Shown piece after piece: positions 3,301 through 58,461 of a stretch of 58,461 nt of DNA. Position 1 is the stretch's first letter. Each line of letters opens with the position of its first letter. The notes under the pieces were generated by a model that did not search any database, was not told the DNA's origin, and saw nothing but the letters and a program-made list of their open reading frames with translations. Position numbers and translations under genes: made by a program. Origin of the DNA: a virus. Location: the IMG/VR virus record IMGVR_UViG_3300033417_000009. One strand, written 5' to 3'.

Positions 3301-6189
3301 GCCCGGCTCAATTTCAAGGTTGGCAGTGTCGCGCAACACAACATCGCCTGACGTTGGTCCAGCCCCGTCAAATGCCCGTGCCAGGATACGGCTCGGGTAA
3401 GCTGCGGTGTTGACCGCCTCTTCCCACACCACCACGAAATCGTCCCTGTCTTGCGGCCACGAAATTATTGAGGGGGATACATCAAAGTTCGTGTTATCTC
3501 CCGGCACAGTGAACTCGGCGCCAGCGGTAGTCACGCTCGTCACCCGACGACCCACCACATCAAACAGCGTTGGGCCGGTGTCCTGAGACCACACCACCAC
3601 AAACTCACCGCTTGTGGAGGTAGCGGCGACCCGGTGCTTTTCCCGCAACACAAACTTTACAGAAGCCCCAGTAGCATTGATGGTAAATTGGGCGTCACTT
3701 GGCGTAGCGGCCAAGTCCAGCTCTCTCCCTACAATGTTCGCGCTCCCGCCACCGGCCTCATCCCAAATCGCAAAAAGCAGGTCGTTATCTTTGCTGTAAG
3801 CAACCGCTGGGTGTGACCGTGACGTGCCGGCGTCAGACCCCGTGCTCACCTGCCGCTCGTCACCCACTTGGTGCGGCCGAGGGGTAAATGTGGGCAGGCT
3901 GGTAACTGACGCAGTGGCAGTCCCCGTGTTTGTGCGCGTGGGCGTTTGCGTTGGTGTGTCTGTGGGGGTGCTCGAAGGTGTGCCTGTACTCGTGGGTGTA
4001 TCCGTGGGAGTTTCTGTTGGCGTTTGTGACGGGCCGGGCGTGGGGGTGCCAGTGATAGTAGGGGTGTTCGTAATCGTTTCTGTTGGCGTAACAGTAGGAG
4101 TTGCGGTCGGGGTAGCGGTTAGCGTAAACGTCGGCGTTGCCGTTGGCTCTGCCGCCACCAACAACAACTGCGGCCTCTCCCCGACAACGCTCCATTCTTT
4201 TGAGCGAAAAAGCGCGTTGTTGTAAAACTGATAGTCCTGTGCCGCAGCTTTCCTCACAAGCCATCCTTCATTCGCTTCTGCGCCGCTAACGAAGTCTTTC
4301 ACGTCATCGGTTACATCAAACTCGAAGAAGCCGAACGGAGTAAATGCATTCATCAAACTCACCGTGGTCGCTACAGAGTCTGCGTGCCCCGGCGTGTTAA
4401 GCCCGTTCCACGTTGCAGGACATGCCGTCGTCGGGCATCTCCACGTGGCCTCTGCTTCAACCCACGGCGTGATGATTCGGTATACTTCCTGCTGTATGTC
4501 GTCGGCGCCCCAAAACTTGTTATTAGTTTTGTAGTAGTACAACCGTAGTTTGGCCTGCTGAATAACGCGCCCACCAGTTTCTACTGCTTGCATCTCAGCC
4601 GTGTTGAAGCGAATAGCGATGCGGCGAAATTGCCAGATCTGTAGGAAATCCTTGGTGCTAAAATTCCTGTTTAAGTAAAAGGAGTTGAAAAAAGTGTCAG
4701 CTTCCGCGGTCAATGTTGTGTTCACAGCGCCAACCGGGGTTTGCGTTGCCGTGACTGTAATCGTGTTCTCTGGCGTGGGCGTGTTAACGGTTGCTGTCAC
4801 CGTTGCCGTGAAAGAAATGGTAGGGGTTGCTGTAGGTGTTCGCGTGGGCGTCTCAGTAGGTGTTTGCGTCGGGGTACGGGTGGGTGTTGGCGTTGGCGTT
4901 GGTGTTGCGGTGGCTACAGTATCTGGGCACCCGGCGAACACGACGCCCCTCGCTTCGCTGGTTGTTACCACGTTAGCAGCAGCGGCGTGCGTTAGCTCAC
5001 CTGTGAAAGGGGAGCTGACCAGTGAAGCGGTGCCTCCAGCCAACCCAACTGCGCCAATGTCGGAAGAACTCACAATCGTACGTCTTGTAACCTGACTCGT
5101 ACCGTCAGACCCGTAGCTAACTTCCCCGCCGATCACGTCGATCTGGTCAAGCCCGCTCATCAACACCACAGCACGGTTCGGCAACGCGCTCATCGCCAGC
5201 GACCAGGCTGTTCCAGTTATGGCTTCTTGCGAACCGCTCGCCGTATCATGTGCGCTAGGCCCGGTGGCTGCCAAAGGCCACACTTGCCCATCTGTGTCCA
5301 AGCCAAAACCCACCAGCACCCCGTTGTAACTACGGAGCGTGCCATTGCTACGGGCGTGGCGTACGGTCACTGTGTAGGCGCCGGGCGTCGCCAACGTGAG
5401 CGCCCCCACCAACGTTATCATTTCAGTTTGCGGTACAGCGGCCAACCGTACCTGAGTTGCTGCTACGGTCACGCCGTTGATTTGAAGGTCATAATCCGCA
5501 GTCAGCGGGGCACCACTATCTATCGTGGCTGACAACGACGCCATGGCTACCACCCGCGTGTCCGCTTCCGTCGTAGTCACGGAAGCAGAAAAACCGCTGA
5601 TGGCTGTGAGCAAGGGGCTAGTGGTTGTGACCCCGGTACCGTCAAGGTCGTCATACCCATGAGGTAAGGTCAGCGTTGTATCATAGCTCGTCAGCGGGAA
5701 AGCCACCACGTCTATGTTGTCGGTGGACAGCGTGCCCCCTGATGTCGCGTGCTGGAACTTGAATGTGCGTGCCCCGTCACTTTCTAGCCCAGGCCACAGC
5801 GAGACAACCACGCCGTTGCTGTAATCGCCGGTGCCTGGTATGTACCGCTCCAATTGCCGGGTCATCGCTGCGGTGGTTTCGCCGCCGCTGGCGCCATCCA
5901 ACGTAACCGCCCACGCCCCAGTTTCCCCGCTCCCCGCAGTGAGAGCCCCGTCGAAGGACGCAAAAGCCAACACCGAGTCTCCTACCTGCGGCACGGCTAC
6001 CGTTACTGAGTAACCGGTGTCTTCAAGCGTTGCGCTGGTGGTAGTATCGACTGTGTCAGTAGACAGGCGTTGGATATCGAGACAACTCGCCAGTGGGGTG
6101 GGCGTCTGCGCATACACGCTCAACCGAGCCATCAGCAAGATTGCCGTAACCAGAAGCGTTTTCGCGCTCATCGCCCGCATCACACTCAT
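322..6189 (-). CDS. Giant secreted multi-domain protein (1955 aa): Sec signal peptide, Pro-Thr linkers, DNRLRE-like domain, two arrays of FVVxW...RRF propeller-like repeats, C-terminal fibre-like module
   Basis: Uninterrupted ORF. The N-terminus [30 protein letters not shown] resembles a Sec signal, and its ATG overlaps the upstream stop (ATGA). There are at least 6 (TPx)n linkers and about 13 repeats such as [14 protein letters not shown] and [15 protein letters not shown]. The motif [21 protein letters not shown] is also present. Confidence 0.85.
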
Positions 6190-9100
6190 CGTACTACCAC
6201 ATAGTAAGTCATCATGGGCGCTGTCGTGGCCCGAATGGCGCACAGTCGCACCGCTACTTGCTCAATTGGTAGAGAAGCGGGCAGGACAAAACCGTCGTAC
6301 CACACGTCCGGCACAAAACCAGCCGGTGAAATGAAAACGGCCATGCCCTGCCGCGCACCGAGTACATCAAGGACCTCAAACACGCACTCGCCGGTAGCCA
6401 GCGCTCCAGTGTTGAAAGTTACCGTTCCCAACAACAGAGGTTCCGCCAACGTCGGGTACGGCCACACACCAGCGAGCACGCCGGTAGCCGCCTGGCCGTA
6501 GGGGATAATGTCGCCGTCTTCAGTAGCAGCGCCAATATCAGTGATCTGGTGACCGCTGGCAATGCCATCTTGCGCCAAGGTGAAGTCGGTTACGGCCCCG
6601 CGCACCAATGTTACCCTGTCAGTGCTCTGGGTTGCGGTCAGGGTGTACTGACCCACGCCGGGCACCACCGCGAGCGCTGTAACGGCTTCTGCCAACGCCG
6701 GGATCTGCGCCACGCCTACCAGCGTGTGCGCCGAGACCGTGGCTCCTTCGTTTTTGAGAGGAGGAATCAACACTCGCATTGGTTGCTGTGCCCCTTCGAG
6801 CGAGAGCTGCACTACGCTCCCGGCTACGGTTGTCGCCGTGACGGGCAGGAAGCCGTAGTCATCAAGAGTCACGGTTTTGGATGACACGTGGATCAAACAC
6901 CCATTCACCAATTGCTCTTCAGTGGTGTCAATGTGGAAACGCCTGCCCGCAGCAAGTTGCCCGTCCACGTCCACCACCTGCCCTGTCAGCCGCACCGACA
7001 CGCAAGAGCTGGTAGGGACAATGTCATCTTGCGTAAGGTCGCGTCTCGGGGTCACGCTTGCCGTAGCGGTAGCCGTAATCGTAGGGGAAGGCGTGTTCAA
7101 AACTACTCCGACTACCGCCACAGCCGTGGGTGAGGGCGCTGGCGTGTGTGTCAACGTAGGTGTGCTTGTAGGTGTGCTTGTAGGCGTGTTCGTTGGAGTC
7201 CTGGTAAAGCCAAATTGAGGAACCTGTGGCACAGCGACCAGCGACGGCGTTGGCGTCGGCGTGTTCAGCGATACCATCGGGTCCGCCTGTATTGAAGGTG
7301 TCGGCGTAAACGTAGCAACGGAAAGCTGTGAGAGTTGGATGCCGGTGCCCATCACCGCGTTATCGCAAGTCACGTCCATCGTCGAAATCTGCCGTACCGG
7401 GTCCACAGTTGGGAAATCGTCTTTTTGCACTGTGAATTGCAGGTAACAGTGTGCCGGTGTGTCGGCCGGGATTGTGAGTGTGGAATCGGGGGTGAATGTA
7501 ATCACGCCCGCTGCTTCCACAGCGGACCACGTGACCCCACAGGTAGTGGTGATCGAATCTTGGTAACTGATAGAATCGTTGTTGCCGGTGCAACCGCCCG
7601 GGGGGTCAGTAGTCTTGCAGTTGAGCGTGAAGGTAGCTTGCGTCAGGTCGCCCTCGGTCCCCCCTGTTACGGCGGCTAACCCGAACGTAAGCCGCACATC
7701 ATCAGTCTCCCCCACGGTATCAACCGCCGGTTGGTTCTCGTAGGTAATCGCCAGCACGACGTTACAAGTCCCGAGCGCGGACGTTGAAGTAGGCGTGGCG
7801 CTTGGCGTGCTCGTGGGTGTGTCAGTGGGTGTGCTTGTGGGGGTAGCTGTCGGCGTTGAAGTGGGCGTGTCAGTAGGCGTGCTTGTAGCCGTCCCAGTAG
7901 GGGTATCGGTGGGCGTGCTCGTGGGCGTGCTCGTGGGAGGTGACGCTGTTGGGGTGTTCAAAGACACTTGCGGCGGCACCGCGACGCTTGGTGTGGGTGT
8001 GCTCGTGTTTAAAATCGCCTGCACCACGACCGCCGCCGTGGCGGTCCTTGTAGGAGAAGAAGTTGGCGTGATTGATGGCCCTGCCACCTGCACTATCGGC
8101 ACCGCTGTTGCTGTCGGTGTAGGAGATTGCGTGTTCAAGATTACCGCTACCACCGGCTGCGGGGTTGCTGTGTTAGAAGGGGTAGGTGTGTTCAACACGG
8201 CTTGCATCACCGACTGTGGAGTCATCGTGTTCGTAGGTGTGTTGGTAGGAGTGTCCGTAGGCGTGCTGGTTGGTGTTGCAGTTGGCGTGTTCGTAGGGGT
8301 ATTTGTTGACGTGCCCGTTGGTGTAACTGTAGGAGTGATCGTTGGCGTGTTCGTAGGGGTTTGTGTCGGCGTACTCGTCGCGGCGGGGGTCAACGTGGCC
8401 GTCGGTGCCTCGAACGCCGCCTCGAACTGCACCGCGCTGGCGCGCAATGTGTCGCACGCGCGGCGCACGCCAAAGTCAGACGCATCGAGATTCACGCAGG
8501 TCCACGCTGCCGCTGTGTCAGGGTCAACCGTGTAAAGCGTGAACTTGTCTGCGTAAGATGTGTTCGTTGAGATCGCAGCCGCAGCGACGGAATCAATCAC
8601 ACTAGCGGTACACGAGCCGCTGCTGCCTGTGGTCCGCGACGAGATCAGATTCAGGCCAGCGTGGATCGGCTCCGAGATCCCCAGCGTGGCGCACGAGTCG
8701 TGCGAGAAGATGCAGTTCACCGTGCTGCCGGTTGTGATGTATGTCGTGTCGTCGTCGGTCGGAGGACCCTCGTCCAGGCACAGGTGCTCCGATGCCTCGT
8801 CGCAGCCGCTAGTGGTCCACCCCATATCACAGGTGCCGGTGCCGGTGGTTGGTAAGGGCATGATTCGAACGTTGCCGGGGTACTCAGTGCCGGTGTGTAC
8901 ATCAACGTCGTCGAAGTTGATGCTGGCCGTCACGTTCGCGAGGGTGTTGCCGACATCGACGCGGGAGTAGTTGACGCTAAAAGATGTGGTCGCGCAGGCG
9001 TCGATTGCCTCGATGAGGTATCCGTTCGCGTCGTACAGATTCAGGTAGACGAGCCCCGTGCCGAAGAAGTCGCGGACCGCCCGGAACTCCACCCTGTACC

Positions 9101-24168: not shown

Positions 24169-24264
24169 GGCAAAACTCACAAAGTGCGCCTGCCTAGCAC
24201 CCACCATGACCGCTGACTACTGGCAGTGAAATAGTTGGCACCCAACAAGGAAAGGAAACACGAT

Positions 24265-24942
24265 ATGGCAGCGAAAAAGGGAGCCGGTTTCGACTGGGAT
24301 TCAATCCCAACTTCCTCGATGTACCCCAACGGGTACTACAACCTGGAAGTGGTGAAGACCGAAGTCGGCGAGAGTCGCAACGGCTACAAACAGTACACAT
24401 TGGAACACCAGATCACGGAGCCCAAGGAATACGCTGGGCGTCTCTACTGGGAGCGTTTCACAATCGGCAACGACGCCGACCCGGAGGCTGAAGACCCGGA
24501 CACCTGGAAGCAGTCCGTCGGCGCCCAACGTCTGAAGAAGTACCTTCTGGCTGCGAAATTCAAGACCAACGGCCAACACCCCGATGAGTTGATCCCGGAG
24601 CTGGAAGGTGTGGAAGTGTGTGCTCACCTTGCCATCAAGATCCAGACGAAAGGTGATTACAAGGGGCAGGAGCAGCAAACTTCCAACTTCTACGCCCTCG
24701 GTGAAAGGGAGCCGCAGTTGTTGGCGGACTCCGACAAGCCCAACGCCCGTCGCGTCCCGCGCAAGCGACACGAAGTGGATGAGGAAGAAGCCCCGGCTCC
24801 GACCCGTCGGCGTACTCGGGTTGCTGAGGAGGAGGAAGAGGAGGAGCCCGTGCCTCGACGACGACGACGGGCAGCGGAAGAGGAAGAGGAGGAGGAAGAG
24901 GAGGAGCCCGTGTCACGCCGAGCCCGGCGCAAGCGTTCTTAA
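24265..24942 (+). CDS. ssDNA-binding protein, DUF669 / T7 gp2.5-like, with alternating acidic/basic C-terminal tail
   Basis: GFDWDSIPTSSMYPNGYYNLEVVKTEV..GYKQYTLEHQITEPKEYAGRLYWERFTIG matches the DUF669 opening. The tail is EEEEEEEPVPRRRRRAAEEEEEEEEEEPVSRRARRKRS. Confidence 0.65.
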   Translation: MAAKKGAGFDWDSIPTSSMYPNGYYNLEVVKTEVGESRNGYKQYTLEHQITEPKEYAGRLYWERFTIGNDADPEAEDPDTWKQSVGAQRLKKYLLAAKFKTNGQHPDELIPELEGVEVCAHLAIKIQTKGDYKGQEQQTSNFYALGEREPQLLADSDKPNARRVPRKRHEVDEEEAPAPTRRRTRVAEEEEEEEPVPRRRRRAAEEEEEEEEEEPVSRRARRKRS

Positions 24943-25006: not shown

Positions 25007-26149
25007 ATGCCCCGCCGTATTGGTAAGGTGCCGCCGTCCGGCCCCCTCACCGCCCGCATCGTCGCAATCAGTGAAGCCCCAGACGAACACGAAGAACGGT
25101 TGGGGCGCCCATTCGCAGGCCCCTCCGGCTATTGGTGGGAGCAATGGCTTACAGCGGCCAGCTTACATCGCGAAGACATCTATGTGGACAACGTGTTCCC
25201 TTACAGGTGCCCCGGCAACAAAATAAAACATGGTCCCCGTGATGAGATAGAGACGTGGGCCAACAATCTCCACGCCCGTCTCACTGCGTTGAAAGACCCC
25301 ATCGTGATCGTTCCCATGGGTAACGTGGCCCTCCGCGCCCTCACCCGTGAACCATTGTGGGCGCACACTAGCCGCAAGATTGGCGACTGGCGCGGGTCCA
25401 TTTTGCCCTACCACATGACCGATGGACGCCAGGCAAAAATCATCCCCACTTACCATTCCGCCGCCACGTTCCGCGACAACTCGCTTGTGAAATTGATTGT
25501 GGCGGACTGGTGCCGTGTTGCAGCTGATCAGCACTTCTACAAGCTACGCCATCCAGTCTACACGAGCTACATCCCTGGACATACCCGGCGTGGTACACTG
25601 GAGCGCTACCTCGATGCAGCCAGGGATCCCGCTGTAGTCATGGCCATCGACATCGAGTGCCCAAACAAACGGATGGCGTGCGTAGGTTTCTCTTTCCATC
25701 CCGATGAAAGTCTCACTCTGCGCTGGCCTGACGACTACGCGGCTATTAAGACTCTCTGTGAGAGCCCCTGTCGCAAGGTGGGGCAGAACTTTCGTTTTGA
25801 CCGTTACTGGCTCCACCCTCCCTCGGGCTTAGCAGAGCTGTCCCGCAAGCACTGGCTCATGCCTCGGCTTCCAACCATCCGTGTGGCCGGGCGCATCTTT
25901 GACCTACTAGACATGCACCATGCCCTCGATAGCACCCTACCCCATGACCTCGCCACTATGGCCTCGCTCGACACTCGTCAGCCCTACTGGAAGAAAAGCT
26001 GGAAGGATTCTGACGAAGTTGACCGCACGCCCTTCGATGACCTTTGTCTCTACAACGGTATTGACTGCTGCGTCACCCGATATCTCTATGACATCTACAC
26101 CACACGATTGAAGGAGACCCATTATGATGAACCACAAGATTTTCAATGA
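25007..26149 (+). CDS. DNA polymerase A, N-terminal fragment: family-4 UDG-like domain plus 3-prime-5-prime exonuclease domain
   Basis: ISEAPDEHEERLGRPFAGPSGYWW...DNVFPYRCPGNK matches GEaPG..E...G.PF.G.sG. Exo I is AIDIEC, Exo II is QNFRFD and Exo III is LYNGIDCC. The ORF stops about 15 aa after Exo III. Confidence 0.75.
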   Translation: MPRRIGKVPPSGPLTARIVAISEAPDEHEERLGRPFAGPSGYWWEQWLTAASLHREDIYVDNVFPYRCPGNKIKHGPRDEIETWANNLHARLTALKDPIVIVPMGNVALRALTREPLWAHTSRKIGDWRGSILPYHMTDGRQAKIIPTYHSAATFRDNSLVKLIVADWCRVAADQHFYKLRHPVYTSYIPGHTRRGTLERYLDAARDPAVVMAIDIECPNKRMACVGFSFHPDESLTLRWPDDYAAIKTLCESPCRKVGQNFRFDRYWLHPPSGLAELSRKHWLMPRLPTIRVAGRIFDLLDMHHALDSTLPHDLATMASLDTRQPYWKKSWKDSDEVDRTPFDDLCLYNGIDCCVTRYLYDIYTTRLKETHYDEPQDFQ

Positions 26150-26357
26150 CCCTGACGACCGCTCCAATTACAACGACCCGCTCCTAGATCAGATCAACCT
26201 CGACGATGACGAGGACGACCTCGAAGATGGCGATGAAGACGAAGATGAAGATGAAGAAGACGCGTGGAGCGATGACGAGGACGACGACTACTTTGAACAG
26301 GAACGCCCTTGGAAAATACGATGGCCTGACGGGCGTAATGCTAATGAGTGGTATTGA
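26124..26357 (+). CDS. Hyper-acidic 77-aa protein inserted between the two PolA fragments (DNA-mimic candidate)
   Basis: SD AAGGAG lies 7 nt before ATGATG. By my count 33 of 77 residues are D/E (DDDEDDLEDGDEDEDEDEEDAWSDDEDDDYFEQE). It sits in the third frame, overlapping the end of 25007..26149 and the start of 26338..27987. Confidence 0.6.
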   Translation: MMNHKIFNDPDDRSNYNDPLLDQINLDDDEDDLEDGDEDEDEDEEDAWSDDEDDDYFEQERPWKIRWPDGRNANEWY

Positions 26358-27987
26358 CCCACCCCACCGCCGCACAAAAAACTACCTCGCGTTCTACCGC
26401 CGTCATTATCAGGAGTTATCCGAACCCCTCTTAGCGCTCATGCGCCACGGCATCCGCGTGGATGTGACCGGCGCTCGTCAGCTCTATGCTACGCTCCGTG
26501 AGCATTGCAATAAGGTAGCCGCGCACCTGGATGACCTTGTAGGCGCCAGTACTTGCGTTTGCTCTCACCACACCAACAAACACACCCCTAAGACCATCAA
26601 CATTTACAAGGGCGTGTTACGCAAAGATGGCAAACCCCGCAAGCCAAAACTCAAAACCACCCACCCGTGCGAACGATGCGCGTGCAACGATTTCACTCCA
26701 CGCTTCCCGTCATTGATCGGGAAGAAAGGGCTTTCCTCGCAAAAAGTGGTGCGTTACCTGTACGATCGTACCACTGGCCTCGGCTTCCCGAAGCAGAAAC
26801 TCCAGGGCCAGACCACCGGCAACGAAATCACCATTCGCAAGCTAACGCTCCGCGCTCGTAATTTTACCTCGCCCAAGCGTGGTCCTAAAGCCAGCGCCCC
26901 CTTCTGGCAACGTGACCCTGAGCACGCCATTGCTGTTTGCCAAGCAATCCTTACCCACCGAGAATGGAGCAAATTATCCGACTACGTTAACGTGACCAAG
27001 TTCGACATCGACGACCGAGTGCGCTGTACATACAAAACCACCACGGAAAACGGGCGCCTTGCTTCCAGCAAAAACCCCCTGGGCACGGGCTACAACTTGC
27101 AGAACATCCCCCGTCCTGGAGGGCCATCCGACCCACACACCCACATCCGTAAGGTGTTCCTCCCGGACGATGGGATGGTTCTCTGGGAATGTGATTTCTC
27201 ACAGATTGAAGATCGTATAGTGAAGGTACTCTCCAAAGTACCTGAAGCAATCGCTGAAGCAGGCCTACACCCTGACACATTCGATAGCCACAGCATAGGG
27301 GCTCAGCGCATCTTCTCCCGCGTGCTCGGCATACCACCTGAAGACGTAGACGTAAAAGTGGAAGTGGCCCCTGGCACCTCCCGTCGCCAGATCTCCAAGC
27401 CCATCCGTCACGGCATCAACTATGATATGAGCGCCGCTCGTATCCAGGACACCTTACTCAAGGATGGCGTGGTCCTACTGCTCGCCATGTGCAAAAAGCT
27501 GCGGGCCGCAGGTCGTGAACGCTACGTCGAAATTTACCAACGAGAACGGCGCAAGCGTATCATGCGACACCACGCGCTCGTGAACTCATGGGGGCGCCGG
27601 TTGGATTTCCACTGGTGCCGCCTTGATGGCGCTACTTATCGACGGGGCTACGCTTTCTCCGCAGCCAGTGAGAACGCGGATTGCTTGAATCAGCTCGCCT
27701 TGATTCCCCTTTATTATTACATCATGGACAACAACCTCCAGAGCCGTGTCAACTTGCAGGTCCACGATTCACTGGTGGGCTCCTCCCCGCTGGGCGAACT
27801 GTGGGAGATCCTCAACTTCCTTAATACCGTGATGTCCCAGGTTCGTGTGTACGAGGGGGTGGAACTGGGCGTGCCGGTGGAGTTTAAAGTGGGCACCACG
27901 TGGATGTGCGAGTTATCTTACAAGCGCTTGCCGTCACCAAAGGCACTGCAAGCTGACGTGGAAAATTTGCTGGAGGGAAGGGGTTGA
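26338..27987 (+). CDS. DNA polymerase A, polymerase-domain fragment (549 aa)
   Basis: EPLLALMRHGIRVD opens the pol domain. Further motifs: GRLASSKNPLGTGYNLQNIPR, motif A DFSQIEDRIV, motif B RRQISKPIRHGINYDMS, motif C QVHDSLV. The upstream 44 codons in the ORF track are an out-of-frame reading of the acidic ORF. Confidence 0.8.
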   Translation: MLMSGIDPPHRRTKNYLAFYRRHYQELSEPLLALMRHGIRVDVTGARQLYATLREHCNKVAAHLDDLVGASTCVCSHHTNKHTPKTINIYKGVLRKDGKPRKPKLKTTHPCERCACNDFTPRFPSLIGKKGLSSQKVVRYLYDRTTGLGFPKQKLQGQTTGNEITIRKLTLRARNFTSPKRGPKASAPFWQRDPEHAIAVCQAILTHREWSKLSDYVNVTKFDIDDRVRCTYKTTTENGRLASSKNPLGTGYNLQNIPRPGGPSDPHTHIRKVFLPDDGMVLWECDFSQIEDRIVKVLSKVPEAIAEAGLHPDTFDSHSIGAQRIFSRVLGIPPEDVDVKVEVAPGTSRRQISKPIRHGINYDMSAARIQDTLLKDGVVLLLAMCKKLRAAGRERYVEIYQRERRKRIMRHHALVNSWGRRLDFHWCRLDGATYRRGYAFSAASENADCLNQLALIPLYYYIMDNNLQSRVNLQVHDSLVGSSPLGELWEILNFLNTVMSQVRVYEGVELGVPVEFKVGTTWMCELSYKRLPSPKALQADVENLLEGRG

Positions 27988-54514: not shown

Positions 54515-54829
54515 CTAGTGCTCTACCGCCCTCGTCAGCAGGGAGAATACACCATCCGGGTCACGGATTACCACTGCTCCAAACAGGGCGTCACGGGCCA
54601 CGGTACGGCGCACCCCGCTGGCTTTTATCGTGCGCGTGTCAGGTACGTAGTGCTCCATCACCAGGCCTTCCCCATCTTCGGTGAACCCAACCGGGCACAG
54701 GTAGCCGGGTATCTGTCTCACTTGCCACCGTGTGTCAGGGTAGAAGCGCTCTGCCAACAGCTTCACGGCAAGTGGCAACCCTTCATACCACCCGCATAGA
54801 TCAAGGTAATCAGCAACGGTCATTTCCAT
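54515..54829 (-). CDS. Hypothetical protein (104 aa)
   Basis: It is coupled to the TerL nuclease ORF (ATGA overlap). Confidence 0.55.
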   Translation of the reverse strand: MEMTVADYLDLCGWYEGLPLAVKLLAERFYPDTRWQVRQIPGYLCPVGFTEDGEGLVMEHYVPDTRTIKASGVRRTVARDALFGAVVIRDPDGVFSLLTRAVEH

Positions 54830-55698
54830 TATGTGCTCATCCAGCTTACGCCAGGGCGCGTCCCCTGTGACGGTTCATACACCGGGCGCGGACGAGGAAA
54901 CCGCACAAGGAACTTGGGATCATTCATTCGGCTCATCACATCCAGCATATCGTCGAAGCGGGAGCCGGGGTAACGGCACCACTCTTGCGTGATGAAATCC
55001 TTCACCAACCGCGCTTGCCCCGCGTCCCGGCCCTGCGTTTCCGGGTTGGGAAGCCACAGCCGCCCTGCTGTGCCTATGGAAATGAGCGTCCTGATACGGT
55101 CAGGTTTTGACACATTATGCCACTCCCCTTTGCGCCCCAGCTCCTCGATATGGAAACGGTAGTTCTCCCGTTCCATCTTCTCGCGCAGGGCAGATGTATC
55201 ACTCATCAACCCATATTCTTCATAGCCTACCCCAACCGGGCGCCACTTACGGTGCAAACGGAACAGTGCTTCGGCCCGCTCCGGCGGCGTCAACCGCTCC
55301 CGCAGCATCTCCAGCCAGTAGTAGTTCCCGTCAGCGTGTGTGCCGAAAACCCACATGGCCGTGAAGTCGTGCTTCTTCTCCCGGCCTAGCGCCGGGTCAC
55401 ACAAGAGGTACACGTTCATGTCCGGCGTCTTCACTTCCTCGTAAAAATTGAGGGGCACGTTCGCAAACCAGTAGCCGCCAGCGATAGACGGGCGTTGCTG
55501 GTAACTGGACTCCCACACTTCCGGGTCAGCTTTCTTCAAGGCATACAGTTCAGTGCAACTCCAGCGCTCTGGCCAAAGCGGCTCCCCGTGTGCAATCAGC
55601 TCCCCAGTGTTGGGGTCGCGGAAGCCGCACTTACACTCAGCCGACCGCCACCCTTCATCACAGGTGGCTTCAGCAGAAAGTCTAACGACCTGCCACAC
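54829..55698 (-). CDS. terL: Terminase large subunit, nuclease-domain fragment (289 aa from GTG 55698)
   Basis: WQVVRLSAEA...GEPLWPERWSCTELYALKK...SYQQRP...LLCDPALGREKKHDFTAMWVFG...VGYEEYG...DDMLDVMSRM are RNase-H-like TerL nuclease motifs. GGAG lies 9 nt before the GTG. The track start at 55887 (TTG) adds 63 codons that are not protein-like. Confidence 0.75.
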   Translation of the reverse strand: MWQVVRLSAEATCDEGWRSAECKCGFRDPNTGELIAHGEPLWPERWSCTELYALKKADPEVWESSYQQRPSIAGGYWFANVPLNFYEEVKTPDMNVYLLCDPALGREKKHDFTAMWVFGTHADGNYYWLEMLRERLTPPERAEALFRLHRKWRPVGVGYEEYGLMSDTSALREKMERENYRFHIEELGRKGEWHNVSKPDRIRTLISIGTAGRLWLPNPETQGRDAGQARLVKDFITQEWCRYPGSRFDDMLDVMSRMNDPKFLVRFPRPRPVYEPSQGTRPGVSWMST

Positions 55699-55921
55699 CT
55701 GCGGGATCTCCTGTCTCTGCCCGTTCGCGCAACGTTCGCGCCGTTGCTTTCTCGAAGCAAGGGTCACAATACGTGACCGTGGGTAGGTGGCATACCGGCT
55801 TCGTGCAACGTACGCTCTCAAACTGCGGCAAGCTGCACGCCAAGCACTTGTAGTGGTAGTGCCCGGCGCGGGGTTTCGGCGTATCAATTTGCGGCGCTTG
55901 CGGCGCTTGCGATTCGTTCAT
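55682..55921 (-). CDS. Cys-rich 79-aa ORF inserted between the TerL ATPase and nuclease fragments
   Basis: AGGAG lies 6 nt before the ATG. HYHYKCLACSLPQFESVRCTKPVCHLPTVTYCDPCFEKA has three Cys pairs. It is in the third frame and overlaps both TerL fragments. Confidence 0.55.
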   Translation of the reverse strand: MNESQAPQAPQIDTPKPRAGHYHYKCLACSLPQFESVRCTKPVCHLPTVTYCDPCFEKATARTLRERAETGDPAGVAGR

Positions 55922-57569
55922 CGTCGTCTCCTATATCATCTTTGTACTCACAATCGCGCATGTAATCCCACGCTCCATCTTCCTGCGCCCGCCACCCAAC
56001 GAAATCGTTTGGCGTCCACCGAGTTGTGTTCACCAGAATTGACGCATTCGGCTCAAGTCGCGTGCGTACGACGCTGTTGTACACGTCGTGAATGCTCTCA
56101 ATCACAGTCTCGCTTGTGGCTTCCTGACGGTTTTTGTGGGGATCGTCGATGACACAATTTCCGACGAAGATTGACTCAACGCAGAAGCAATGATCGCCTT
56201 CCACCTCAAGGTCATAGACCGGCGCAACGCCGCATTCTTCGACTTGTGAAATCGCATGTGACAGGGTTGGCACAGGACGGCGAGATTCTCGAGGTCGTCG
56301 TTGCGTTTGTTCTCGTCCATGTGGTGTACACCTAGCTTCCCCTTCGTGCCACACTCGAAGCATATCCTGTACTTTTTGCGCAGCGCTGGCGAAATACGCT
56401 TTTTGAAGCGCCGTAGGTAGTAACGGACCCACGCGCCGTCCCGGTAGTTTGGGTTTTTCTTGCCCATCATCAGCACCGAATGTGCCGCGTTCTTGCAGAC
56501 TACGGAACAAAACGAGGTCGTGGAAGAATGCGGGTTGAACGTTACCTTGCACACCGGGCAGACAACCGGCCGAAGCGTACGCCGCATGATCCCACCACAC
56601 GCTGGAGAACAGCACTTGTGCGTTTTCGTACGCGGCACAAACGGTTTCTTGCAGCAAGCGCATCGCTGCTTTCGCTTTTCGCGCTCCTTGCGCATGGACA
56701 TGCTGTAAAACTTGCCGAAACAACTCCTGGTGCAGAAGTAATGAGGGCGTTTCTTGGGATACCACTTTGGGACAAATGTCTCTTTGCACCAGTGACAGGT
56801 CAGTTCCATACACGCGATCTCCTCTCCGCAACGAGCCCGCTTGGCGCAAGCCGGTTTCGGCCAGAATATCGTGGTTGGCAGTAAGCAGCAATGAGTGAGA
56901 GCCAAAGCTGGTGCGCACCACCGAGCGCTTGCCATTGCAGCGCGTTGCACGCACCCTGCGCCAGCCAAACGGGGTGGCTACCTCCGCGCCCACAGTCACG
57001 TGTTCGATGGGAACCCACCCCTGTGCAGTGAGTACCCGCTGGCCTTCCGCAATGCACAGATTCGCCCCCAGCCCGTTGATCGTCCCGTCGAAGCCGCTAG
57101 CAAAAAAGCGACCGCCCGCTTGCAACGTGAACTCGTCTGCCGCCCGCGATTGTTTCGCAACCGCTGCGTGCGGGAACAGTTCCAGGTACATCTCACTGCG
57201 CATCATGTCACGGATGCGTCGGCCGAAAGCCCGTGCCAGCTTCTTGCCGTAACAAAGCAAAATCACAGTGTCCGCCGGGTTATGGCCAAAGTAAAAGGGG
57301 ATCAAGTTCACCGTGCCCCCCTCGGACTTTGAGTGCCTGAAGGGCATCGTCACCATCGTGCGTTTGAACTTCTGGTCTTTCAACGTGACGGCTTCGTAAA
57401 TGGGTGTCAGGATCTGTTGCTGGAAGTAGGTATATTTGTAGGTCGGGTTCATCGCCAAGTAAAACGCGCCATAGTTGTGGCGTATATCGTCCAGGTTTAC
57501 CATCTCTGGGTCAGCCCGCAGTTCGGGCAGTAAGCGCCATGCATCGCCGAGATTTTGAACAAGAACCAC
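55884..57569 (-). CDS. terL: Terminase large subunit, ATPase-domain fragment, interrupted by a 300-codon intein (start uncertain, 57569 GTG or 57503 ATG)
   Basis: Walker A-like TMPFRHSKSEG. Walker B is split as GLGANL/[intein]/CVIDDP. The coupling motif is NTTRWTPNDFVGW. The ORF stops before any nuclease motif. Confidence 0.8.
   Translation of the reverse strand: MVLVQNLGDAWRLLPELRADPEMVNLDDIRHNYGAFYLAMNPTYKYTYFQQQILTPIYEAVTLKDQKFKRTMVTMPFRHSKSEGGTVNLIPFYFGHNPADTVILLCYGKKLARAFGRRIRDMMRSEMYLELFPHAAVAKQSRAADEFTLQAGGRFFASGFDGTINGLGANLCIAEGQRVLTAQGWVPIEHVTVGAEVATPFGWRRVRATRCNGKRSVVRTSFGSHSLLLTANHDILAETGLRQAGSLRRGDRVYGTDLSLVQRDICPKVVSQETPSLLLHQELFRQVLQHVHAQGARKAKAAMRLLQETVCAAYENAQVLFSSVWWDHAAYASAGCLPGVQGNVQPAFFHDLVLFRSLQERGTFGADDGQEKPKLPGRRVGPLLPTALQKAYFASAAQKVQDMLRVWHEGEARCTPHGREQTQRRPRESRRPVPTLSHAISQVEECGVAPVYDLEVEGDHCFCVESIFVGNCVIDDPHKNRQEATSETVIESIHDVYNSVVRTRLEPNASILVNTTRWTPNDFVGWRAQEDGAWDYMRDCEYKDDIGDDDERIASAASAAN
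56102..56809 (-). CDS. HNH endonuclease with three CxxC...C..C Zn-finger repeats, nested in the intein in a different reading frame
   Basis: GGAGAGGAG lies 9 nt before ATG 56809. MELTCHWCKETF..FCTRSC / CACCKKPF..CCSPAC / CPVCKVTF..FCSVVC, then CFECGTKGKLGVHHMDENKRNDDLENLAVLCQPCHMRFH (HNH core, about 56246-56362). Confidence 0.75.
   Translation of the reverse strand: MELTCHWCKETFVPKWYPKKRPHYFCTRSCFGKFYSMSMRKEREKRKQRCACCKKPFVPRTKTHKCCSPACGGIMRRTLRPVVCPVCKVTFNPHSSTTSFCSVVCKNAAHSVLMMGKKNPNYRDGAWVRYYLRRFKKRISPALRKKYRICFECGTKGKLGVHHMDENKRNDDLENLAVLCQPCHMRFHKSKNAALRRSMTLRWKAIIASALSQSSSEIVSSTIPTKTVRKPQARL
56157..57056 (-). mobile_element. Intein (Hint splicing domain) in the TerL Walker B region
   Basis: Block A is CIAEGQRVL (Cys1 codon 57056-57054). 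Block B is LLLTANHDIL. Blocks F/G are VYDLEVEGDHCFCVESIFVGN, followed by the +1 Cys (56156-56154). The central 189 codons carry no endonuclease motif in this frame. Confidence 0.8.
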
Positions 57570-58241: not shown

Positions 58242-58461
58242 CTTCCTTGCCCTCCTTTGGGGTTACATTCCGTGGTACTTGTGGGGGCGCGGGCTGCCCC
58301 ATCTTGTACGTGCGCGTCCGTTCCTGGATTGCTGCAACCACCCCGCCGCTCATACTAGAAAGCTGCTTCTGGATGTCCTGGCCCAGCTTTTTCTCCCGCA
58401 CACGGTAAGCGAGCACACAAAGCTGTCGTGCCTCTTTGTAGTATTTGAGGGCCAAGTCTGC
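58219..58461 (-). CDS. 3-prime part of the junction-spanning 133-aa gene (see 1..286)
   Basis: The frame is continuous with 286..128 once the duplicated 127 bp is collapsed. The track's TTG start at 58455 is an artefact of the contig end. Confidence 0.6.
   Translation of the reverse strand, partial: ADLALKYYKEARQLCVLAYRVREKKLGQDIQKQLSSMSGGVVAAIQERTRTYKMGQPAPPQVPRNVTPKEGKEDGERDAS
58335..58461. repeat. 127-bp terminal direct repeat, identical to 1..127
   Basis: Read directly. Confidence 0.97.

Follow-up and report, generated by a model that had tools for sequence, protein, structure and literature searches.

Phage DNA polymerases of family A (PolA) that are encoded in pieces have been described before. 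The closest case is that of the S-SBP1-like, T7-like cyanophages, in which fission of the PolA gene has placed the exonuclease (exo) and polymerase (pol) parts on overlapping open reading frames (ORFs), and for which reassembly of the subunits has been modelled (Czernecki et al., 2023, Nucleic Acids Research, PMC10201439). A second relevant group is the UDG-PolAs of the N4-like cluster and of SPO1 and its relatives, in which a domain resembling uracil-DNA glycosylase (UDG) stands N-terminal to exo and pol and is predicted to be packed between them, which would enlarge the interface between subunits (PMC10201439). Here we describe a UDG-PolA that is split, at positions 25007 to 27987 of the virus record IMGVR_UViG_3300033417_000009, a stretch of 58,461 nucleotides (nt) called the window below. 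Exo and pol are encoded there by separate ORFs, and a third, hyper-acidic ORF of 77 amino acids (aa) occupies the seam between them. We consider it likely, with a probability of roughly 0.75, that UDG-PolA underwent an ancient fission, that the seam later became a slot for genes, and that the acidic ORF is lineage-specific cargo which did not cause the split and is not required as a subunit.

The locus shares with S-SBP1 adjacent exo and pol genes, a break at the domain boundary, short loose termini and a predicted reassembly, and the overlap of the S-SBP1 ORFs resembles that in one relative of the window's polymerase (L005). It belongs, however, to another PolA subfamily, its first fragment carrying the UDG-like domain, and its seam has gained variable cargo, whereas no intervening ORF is reported for S-SBP1 (PMC10201439). 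Split polymerases are also found in uncultured marine cyanophages (bioRxiv 10.1101/325100). A marine phage group related to the Zobellviridae has the order polymerase part, small ORF without homologues, polymerase part, kept in most of its genomes; that lineage is unrelated to ours, acidity of the ORF goes unmentioned there, and the likeness is one of gene order only. The LUZ24-like phages are reportedly annotated with a DNA polymerase part I and a part II.

Two other kinds of gene in pieces are relevant to what lies in the seam. The nrdA gene of Aeromonas phage Aeh1, a case said to have been described by Friedrich et al. in 2007, is reportedly arranged as nrdA-a, mobE and nrdA-b, the pieces having been made by a free-standing homing endonuclease. 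There, too, the gene of an essential enzyme is split into two translated and reassembling pieces with an extra ORF between them, and in one relative of the window's polymerase (L007) the very same seam is occupied by a gene for an HNH endonuclease. The ORF of the window, however, lacks a nuclease domain and the seams of many relatives are empty, so that a homing endonuclease can be proposed as the cause of the split only tentatively. Fractured genes have split inteins on either side of a gene for a homing endonuclease (Dassa et al., 2009, PMC2677866). Our locus resembles these in that a small ORF separates the two ORFs of a broken gene, in a lineage rich in inteins, but the halves of a split intein are absent from the new termini, and trans-splicing is therefore not expected.

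The first polymerase fragment (25007..26149, + strand, frame 2) encodes 380 aa, with a family-4 UDG-like domain (Pfam UDG, residues 10–159, E = 3.8e-19; NCBIfam UDG_fam4, E = 1e-22, under the curated cut-off) placed N-terminal to a 3'–5' exonuclease domain. The Pfam match of the latter to DNA_pol_A_exo1 is weak; its translation contains Exo I (DIE), Exo II (GQNFRFD) and Exo III (YNGID, within LYNGID), and it stops 25 residues past LYNGIDCC, rather than about 15 aa after Exo III as a first-pass annotation made from the letters had it. The second fragment (26344..27987, + strand, frame 1; 547 aa from the ATG at 26344, or 549 aa from that at 26338, with the stop at 27987) encodes the thumb, palm and fingers of a family A pol domain (Pfam DNA_pol_A, E = 2.2e-25) with motifs A, B and C; HGIRVD, NLQNIPR, DFSQIED, KPIRHGINY and QVHDS are all present in its translation. 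On the DNA polymerase profile phrog_17 the exo fragment covers positions 480–831 and the pol fragment 836–1231; the pieces are therefore contiguous and nothing has been lost. ORFs, Pfam and phrog_17 thus agree with the first-pass annotation that the polymerase gene is divided in two where exo meets pol, on adjacent ORFs of the same strand, with the break in the interdomain linker and every conserved motif retained.

The acidic ORF (26124..26357, + strand, frame 0) begins inside the first fragment and ends inside the second. Its Shine-Dalgarno sequence, AAGGAG (26111..26116), lies within the last exo codons and is followed, after 7 nt, by its ATG; the ORF overlaps the end of exo by 26 nt (26124..26149) and the start of pol (26338..26357) by 20 nt if pol starts at ATG 26338, or by 14 nt if at ATG 26344. 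From exo to the acidic ORF to pol, three frames are used and each frame step is +1. These overlaps and frames, the ribosome-binding site and the count of acidic residues had been given in the first-pass annotation, the overlap with pol as about 20 nt, and a scripted check bore them out.

How old the split is can be judged from the relatives of the polymerase. A search with the pol fragment recovered twelve homologues of 46–54% identity that are stand-alone proteins of 524–542 aa, two further homologues that are longer only through inteins, and one that is a 411-aa fragment on a 1.5-kb contig. More distant relatives (30–36% identity) are fused; those recovered in this search (30–35%) are UDG+PolA proteins of about 800–880 aa, and have exactly the architecture described for UDG-PolAs; here the chain is cut after exo. 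In a simple neighbour-joining tree of the pol region, calculated without support values, the split forms make up one monophyletic clade, and the fused forms lie outside it, among them L021, on a contig of a Chloroflexota metagenome-assembled genome (MAG), the isolate MW202489 and Microcystis phage Mel-JY34. The same break is present in every clade member found. The nearest relatives of the window are L015 and L016, which are its sisters in the tree; an insertion in the exo domain (PPSGLAELS...LP..RV) is present in these two and the window and is unique to them. Scanning IMG/VR with the single pol protein gave no match, and scanning it with an alignment gave two contigs of the L003 type (the 58-kb genome of L003 itself and a 32-kb contig from another sample). 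A metagenome scan added one informative locus, L014, and a genome scan added one fused relative, on a Chloroflexota MAG contig.

The position of the break can be placed closely. Across it the fused relatives read ...YNGIDACVTWELADLYRRRL-AEQDR-LAFYFRHYQ..., where YNGIDACVTWELADLYRRRL ends in LYRRRL, with 5–7 residues between ...RL and LxFY.... In the split forms the first ORF ends 2–12 residues past the RL of the fused-relative alignment, and the second starts 3–4 residues before LxFY, or 13–15 residues before it in the window. The break therefore falls within the linker of 5–7 residues that joins the last exo helix to the first pol helix.

The seam itself is highly variable. Genomic context was compared for eleven clade relatives on thirteen loci, and for L014 outside the clade. 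Exo and pol adjoin directly in four loci, overlapping by ATGA in L006, L015 and L016 and by 23 nt in L005, and in L023 they are separated by a 62-nt spacer with no ORF. Elsewhere the seam holds a hydrophobic mini-ORF of 22 aa (L025, about 808–876), a mildly acidic 107-aa ORF that is not of low complexity (L003, L004 and L019), homologous basic ORFs of 199 and 202 aa (L017 and L018), the former joined by a hydrophobic 34-aa ORF (3900–4004), or a 124-aa ORF with a Cys-rich mini-ORF (L024). An insert of 1.9 kb in L007 (2057–4004) has six ORFs: a 219-aa HNH_3 homing endonuclease (E = 3.6e-9) and five small ORFs. Some of the relatives' seam proteins are basic (isoelectric point, pI, 9–10.5), and none of the seam ORFs resembles the 77-aa ORF of the window, which was found in this phage alone. 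Since the seams of L015 and L016 are empty and these are the sisters of the window, the acidic ORF was probably gained after the fission. On the sequences compared, the simplest history would be one ancient fission followed by a later gain on the window's own branch. The earlier idea of a gene split by the acidic ORF, or by members of a family of small gene-splitting elements, finds no support in the clade-wide break, the empty seams of L015, L016 and others, and the unrelated cargo elsewhere.

Several details of these loci may be recorded here. A 122-aa ORF and a Cys-rich 57-aa ORF of L007 recur in L024, there without the HNH gene, and a 115-aa ORF of L007 shows weak similarity to the 107-aa ORF in the seam of L003. 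The hydrophobic ORFs of L025 and L017 look like single transmembrane helices, and the stop codon of each overlaps the pol ATG (ATGA). The polymerases of the lineage are heavily invaded by inteins, which occur within both polymerase fragments of relatives (L023, 396–2450 and 2513–5044; L024, 1596–4028). That in the exo fragment of L023 (396–2450, 684 aa) interrupts Exo II (GQNF|C...N|CFD); homologue P0007 has an intein before NLQNIPR, and P0010 an HNH intein in motif A.

The DNA of the locus has been recovered more than once. Over the 2,234 nt around the acidic ORF, contigs from two other samples, one in ENA and one in Logan, are identical to the window, so that the same DNA is present in three independent assemblies, and 8 contigs that were read carry the 77-aa protein unchanged. 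Samples that hold this phage are ENA ERZ27256875 and Logan SRR9008719, and a JGI sample has the same protein. The split is thus genuine and inherited, being found in three assemblies and throughout a clade whose outgroups are fused. The window carries an exact terminal direct repeat of 127 bp (1–127 = 58335–58461), such as assemblers leave on complete circular genomes. It probably represents a whole phage genome, assembled as a circle of about 58.3 kb, and it yielded no tRNA genes.

The product of the acidic ORF has 22 Asp (D) and 11 Glu (E) among its 77 residues (33/77, or 43% D/E) against 6 Lys or Arg, a pI of about 4 and a net charge of about –27. Its core (26199..26288) is a low-complexity run of GAN codons in which 24 of 30 residues are D/E; the runner-up among 30-aa stretches in all six frames of the window has 17. 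The core includes a direct 16-nt repeat (26204–26219 = 26270–26285), as expected if the D/E run had grown by slippage or duplication. The protein matched only itself among 5.8e9 proteins, and again only itself in an exhaustive HMMER search of 1.84e9 cluster representatives. Phage records searched by tblastn gave no match, nor did PDB sequences at E ≤ 10, and no domain was found in Pfam (E ≤ 0.01), PHROGs or NCBIfam. With blastn against phages only the GAN repeat matched; the tracts that it hit, in 352 unrelated records, also code for D/E and reflect convergence in composition. The codon-usage score per codon, trained on the genome's confident genes (in-frame average 0.27), is 0.63 for the acidic frame, a value inflated by the GAN repeat, and 0.13 and –1.20 for the other two. 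The acidic frame thus scores best of the three, and no homologue of the ORF was found in relatives. From its sequence the ORF looks like a real but isolated gene.

An antisense hydrophobic ORF of 63 aa (26184–26375, – strand), with GAGGT 8 nt before its GTG start, is a mirror image of the acidic one. Since all of the module runs on the + strand, this ORF probably arises from the GAN repeat as a by-product.

Strong Shine-Dalgarno sites precede many ORFs of this genome. The acidic ORF has such a site, in AAGGAG with 7-nt spacing, at the position where relatives hold the initiation signals of whichever ORF follows exo. The pol ATGs at 26338 and 26344, in contrast, have none, and lie 11–17 nt upstream of the stop codon of the acidic ORF (11 nt for ATG 26344, from which the product starts with M-S, like those of relatives). 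In the relatives examined the pol ATG overlaps the stop codon of the preceding ORF as ATGA, the exceptions being L005 (overlap of 23 nt) and L023 (spacer). The pol start is probably a site of termination-reinitiation. Because pol lacks a Shine-Dalgarno sequence and its ATG overlaps the end of the acidic ORF, we infer that the two are coupled: most likely, to judge by these signals, the acidic ORF is translated and pol is made by ribosomes that finish it.

We therefore favour an ancient fission with later cargo, and propose the following course of events. In an ancestor of this clade of soil phages, a family A gene encoding UDG, exo and pol would have been broken in the linker between the exo and pol helices, and the enzyme would since have consisted of two separately made subunits, UDG+exo and pol, presumably joined again without a covalent bond. 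The seam would then have turned into an ordinary gene junction, left empty or filled with unrelated small ORFs or with six ORFs that include an HNH homing endonuclease. In the window's phage alone it would have received an insert of roughly 260 nt encoding a 77-aa polyanion, which would start from its own AAGGAG inside the end of exo and then hand ribosomes to pol, much as relatives may couple pol, through ATGA, to whatever ORF precedes it. If the acidic product has a role of its own, the likeliest, stated with low confidence, may be that of a nucleic-acid decoy that binds basic DNA-binding surfaces.

Some observations weigh against this course of events or limit it. The monophyly of the split forms comes from the neighbour-joining tree without support values described above. 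L014, whose polymerase has 39% identity, is split too and branches outside the clade, so the split may be older or recurrent. Its polymerase, on a contig of lower GC content, is in three ORFs (3435–6869), with small ORFs in both gaps. No relatives of 54–100% identity were found from which to date the insertion, to learn how it took place or to gauge selection on the acidic ORF. Its translation and its coupling to pol are read from signals only. A single-sequence AlphaFold2 model of the acidic product shows no fold and no secondary structure (pLDDT 58, pTM 0.15), but having been made without an alignment, for an ORF without relatives, it gives weak grounds for calling the product disordered; with low confidence, the model would make it a disordered polyanion. 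The cause of the fission could have been a frameshift of the S-SBP1 type, a state that L005 resembles, or insertion of a homing endonuclease, such as L007 still has, alone among the relatives examined.

The pieces of L014 are an exo fragment of 390 aa, an N-terminal pol fragment of 245 aa that ends just before motif A, and a C-terminal pol fragment of 264 aa. Its gap ORFs encode 85 aa (Cys-rich), 54 aa and 108 aa, and both ORFs in the exo/pol gap join their neighbours by 4-nt overlaps.

The terminase gene of the window, terL, is also split, and the first-pass annotation had offered a common origin of the two splits as one explanation. On the – strand lie an N-terminal ATPase fragment (55884–57569), a gap ORF (55682–55921) encoding a Cys-rich 79-aa protein from AGGAG-N6-ATG, and a nuclease fragment (54829–55698) starting from AGGAG-N9-GTG. 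The TerL split is real, and its topology, again with two +1 steps, matches that of the polymerase, as had been claimed; a relative of 39% identity (L022) has an intact TerL of 503 aa. The ATPase fragment holds a probable mini-intein, seen in the junctions GANL|CIAEG... and ...FVGN|CVIDD, a TxxH block at TANH and a weak Hint_2 match.

Alternatives to a true and ancient fission can be weighed as follows. The split might be only apparent, a single polypeptide being restored by error correction, an intron, trans-splicing or a programmed +1 frameshift. Both upstream ORFs do end in the weak stop context TGA-C, and the pol frame is open from 26206; it is open from there, however, only since the GAN repeat gives no stops in that frame. 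Identity of the DNA across independent assemblies, together with a split kept across a diverged clade with differing junctions, rules out an assembly or sequencing error, and the single ORF that error correction might have restored did not appear. For a group I or II intron, an Rfam scan of 25800–26700 gave chance hits only (E > 1), and the predicted RNA fold of a 301-nt region is poorer than that of shuffled sequence (z = +1.46); the gap between the end of exo and the start of pol is 188 nt of GAN repeats. Split inteins and trans-splicing were rejected on the new termini, which add about 10 (exo) and 13 (pol) residues, too short an extension and without intein blocks, and on the ATGA overlap of exo and pol in several relatives. 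A programmed +1 frameshift or a readthrough fusion is countered by the codons before the two stops, CAA and TAT, which by our inference cannot re-pair in the +1 frame, so that neither stop offers a slippery or re-pairing codon, and by a second TGA two codons past the exo stop. An apparent split is accordingly extremely improbable. That small mobile gene-splitting elements entered polA and terL by a common mechanism is highly improbable as well. In each gene the split is at a domain boundary and holds a small ORF, led by a Shine-Dalgarno site and overlapping the ORF on either side, with two +1 steps, but overlapping ORFs must differ in frame, and four +1 steps would arise by chance about once in 16. 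The two seams have no DNA in common, with only chance matches of 10–13 nt elsewhere in the window, and their gap ORFs have no protein similarity, one being acidic and disordered and the other Cys-rich; no nuclease, transposase or terminal repeats are present, and the polA split predates the acidic ORF. We reject a mobile element common to both seams on this lack of similarity, and likewise, for the polymerase seam, a gene split by a homing endonuclease encoded in the window, the acidic ORF having no Pfam, PHROG or NCBIfam domain.

What the acidic ORF does, given an ancient fission, is a separate matter. Possible, if tentative, is a role as a translated relay or leader: its Shine-Dalgarno sequence would load ribosomes that reinitiate at pol, the peptide would be dispensable, and its acidic run could abort ribosomes by intrinsic ribosome destabilisation and so tune pol against exo. 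The pol start without its own signal just upstream of the acidic stop, the overlap of the pol ATG with the preceding stop in relatives other than L005 and L023, and a low-complexity peptide without homologues and with an internal repeat, as under little constraint, all fit a relay; acidic nascent chains have moreover been reported to destabilise bacterial ribosomes (PMC9718836; bioRxiv 10.1101/2021.02.02.429294). Coupling needs fewer than 77 codons, however, the closest relatives couple exo straight to pol, and 43% D/E is not expected from neutral drift alone. Known acidic mimics suggest another role. Gene 5.9 of phage T7 sits in the replication gene cluster. Its product is a small acidic DNA mimic that inhibits RecBCD and MukBEF (PMC9836394, PMC7617805). 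The window's product, tiny and very acidic like gp5.9, Ocr and ArdA, with a net charge of about –27, a strong Shine-Dalgarno sequence and a pol neighbour of pI 9.6, could conceivably be such a polyanionic mimic, either a decoy against defence or a modulator in the DNA cleft of the basic pol. It is, however, a low-complexity D/E run that matches neither Ocr, ArdA nor any other family in Pfam (E ≤ 0.01) or among PDB sequences (E ≤ 10); known mimics are folded and its model is foldless (a weak point, no alignment having been used); it shows, being without homologues, no sign of selection; and relatives do without it. A functional mimic is on balance doubtful. Relay and mimic can also be joined: the seam would be a favoured site for a gene translated in step with both subunits, and here that gene would encode a polyanion, new in origin and enlarged by repeat expansion, that serves as a disordered mimic of DNA, guarding the DNA cleft of the basic pol until UDG-exo docks or serving as a decoy for host DNA-binding defence, while setting the ratio of pol to exo through ribosome instability. 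This combination we think unlikely. The electrostatic bridge that had been suggested, an obligatory third subunit joining exo and pol, is very unlikely: the ORF does lie between both genes, co-expressed and opposite in charge to pol, but the seam is free of ORFs in at least five relatives that share the break (L005, L006, L015, L016 and L023), others carry unrelated and partly basic proteins, pol fragments just as basic (pI 8.5–9.7) manage without an acidic protein, and the predicted packing of UDG between exo and pol is already a large interface (PMC10201439).

Two features of the neighbouring sequence may be added. In the UDG-like domain of the window, SEAPD (25070–25095) and HSAA (about 25450–25470) stand where all aligned relatives, split and fused, have GEAPG and HPAA, an alteration relative to described UDG-PolAs that may point to degenerate glycosylase motifs. 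Upstream of the polymerase, the gene at 24235–24942, with weak matches to DUF669 and phrog_2300, ends in alternating poly-E and poly-R runs (24817–24906: EEEEEEEPVPRRRRRAAEEEEEEEEEE), a second acidic low-complexity tract in the replication module.

Split phage polymerases are already known, and this is another split PolA. It is of interest as a second, independent lineage in which exo and pol are on separate genes, and one in which the proofreading subunit also carries a UDG-like domain. What is mildly novel is the combination of a split UDG-PolA with a variable cargo slot, and of a hyper-acidic ORF without relatives that is probably coupled to translation of the polymerase and that, from its sequence, is a candidate for a disordered DNA mimic or a translational coupler. 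For annotation, the lesson is that a small ORF within a split gene need not be the agent that split it. For these phages, the later fate of the seam indicates that the site of an old gene fission has become one at which small genes are gained and lost, a homing endonuclease among them.

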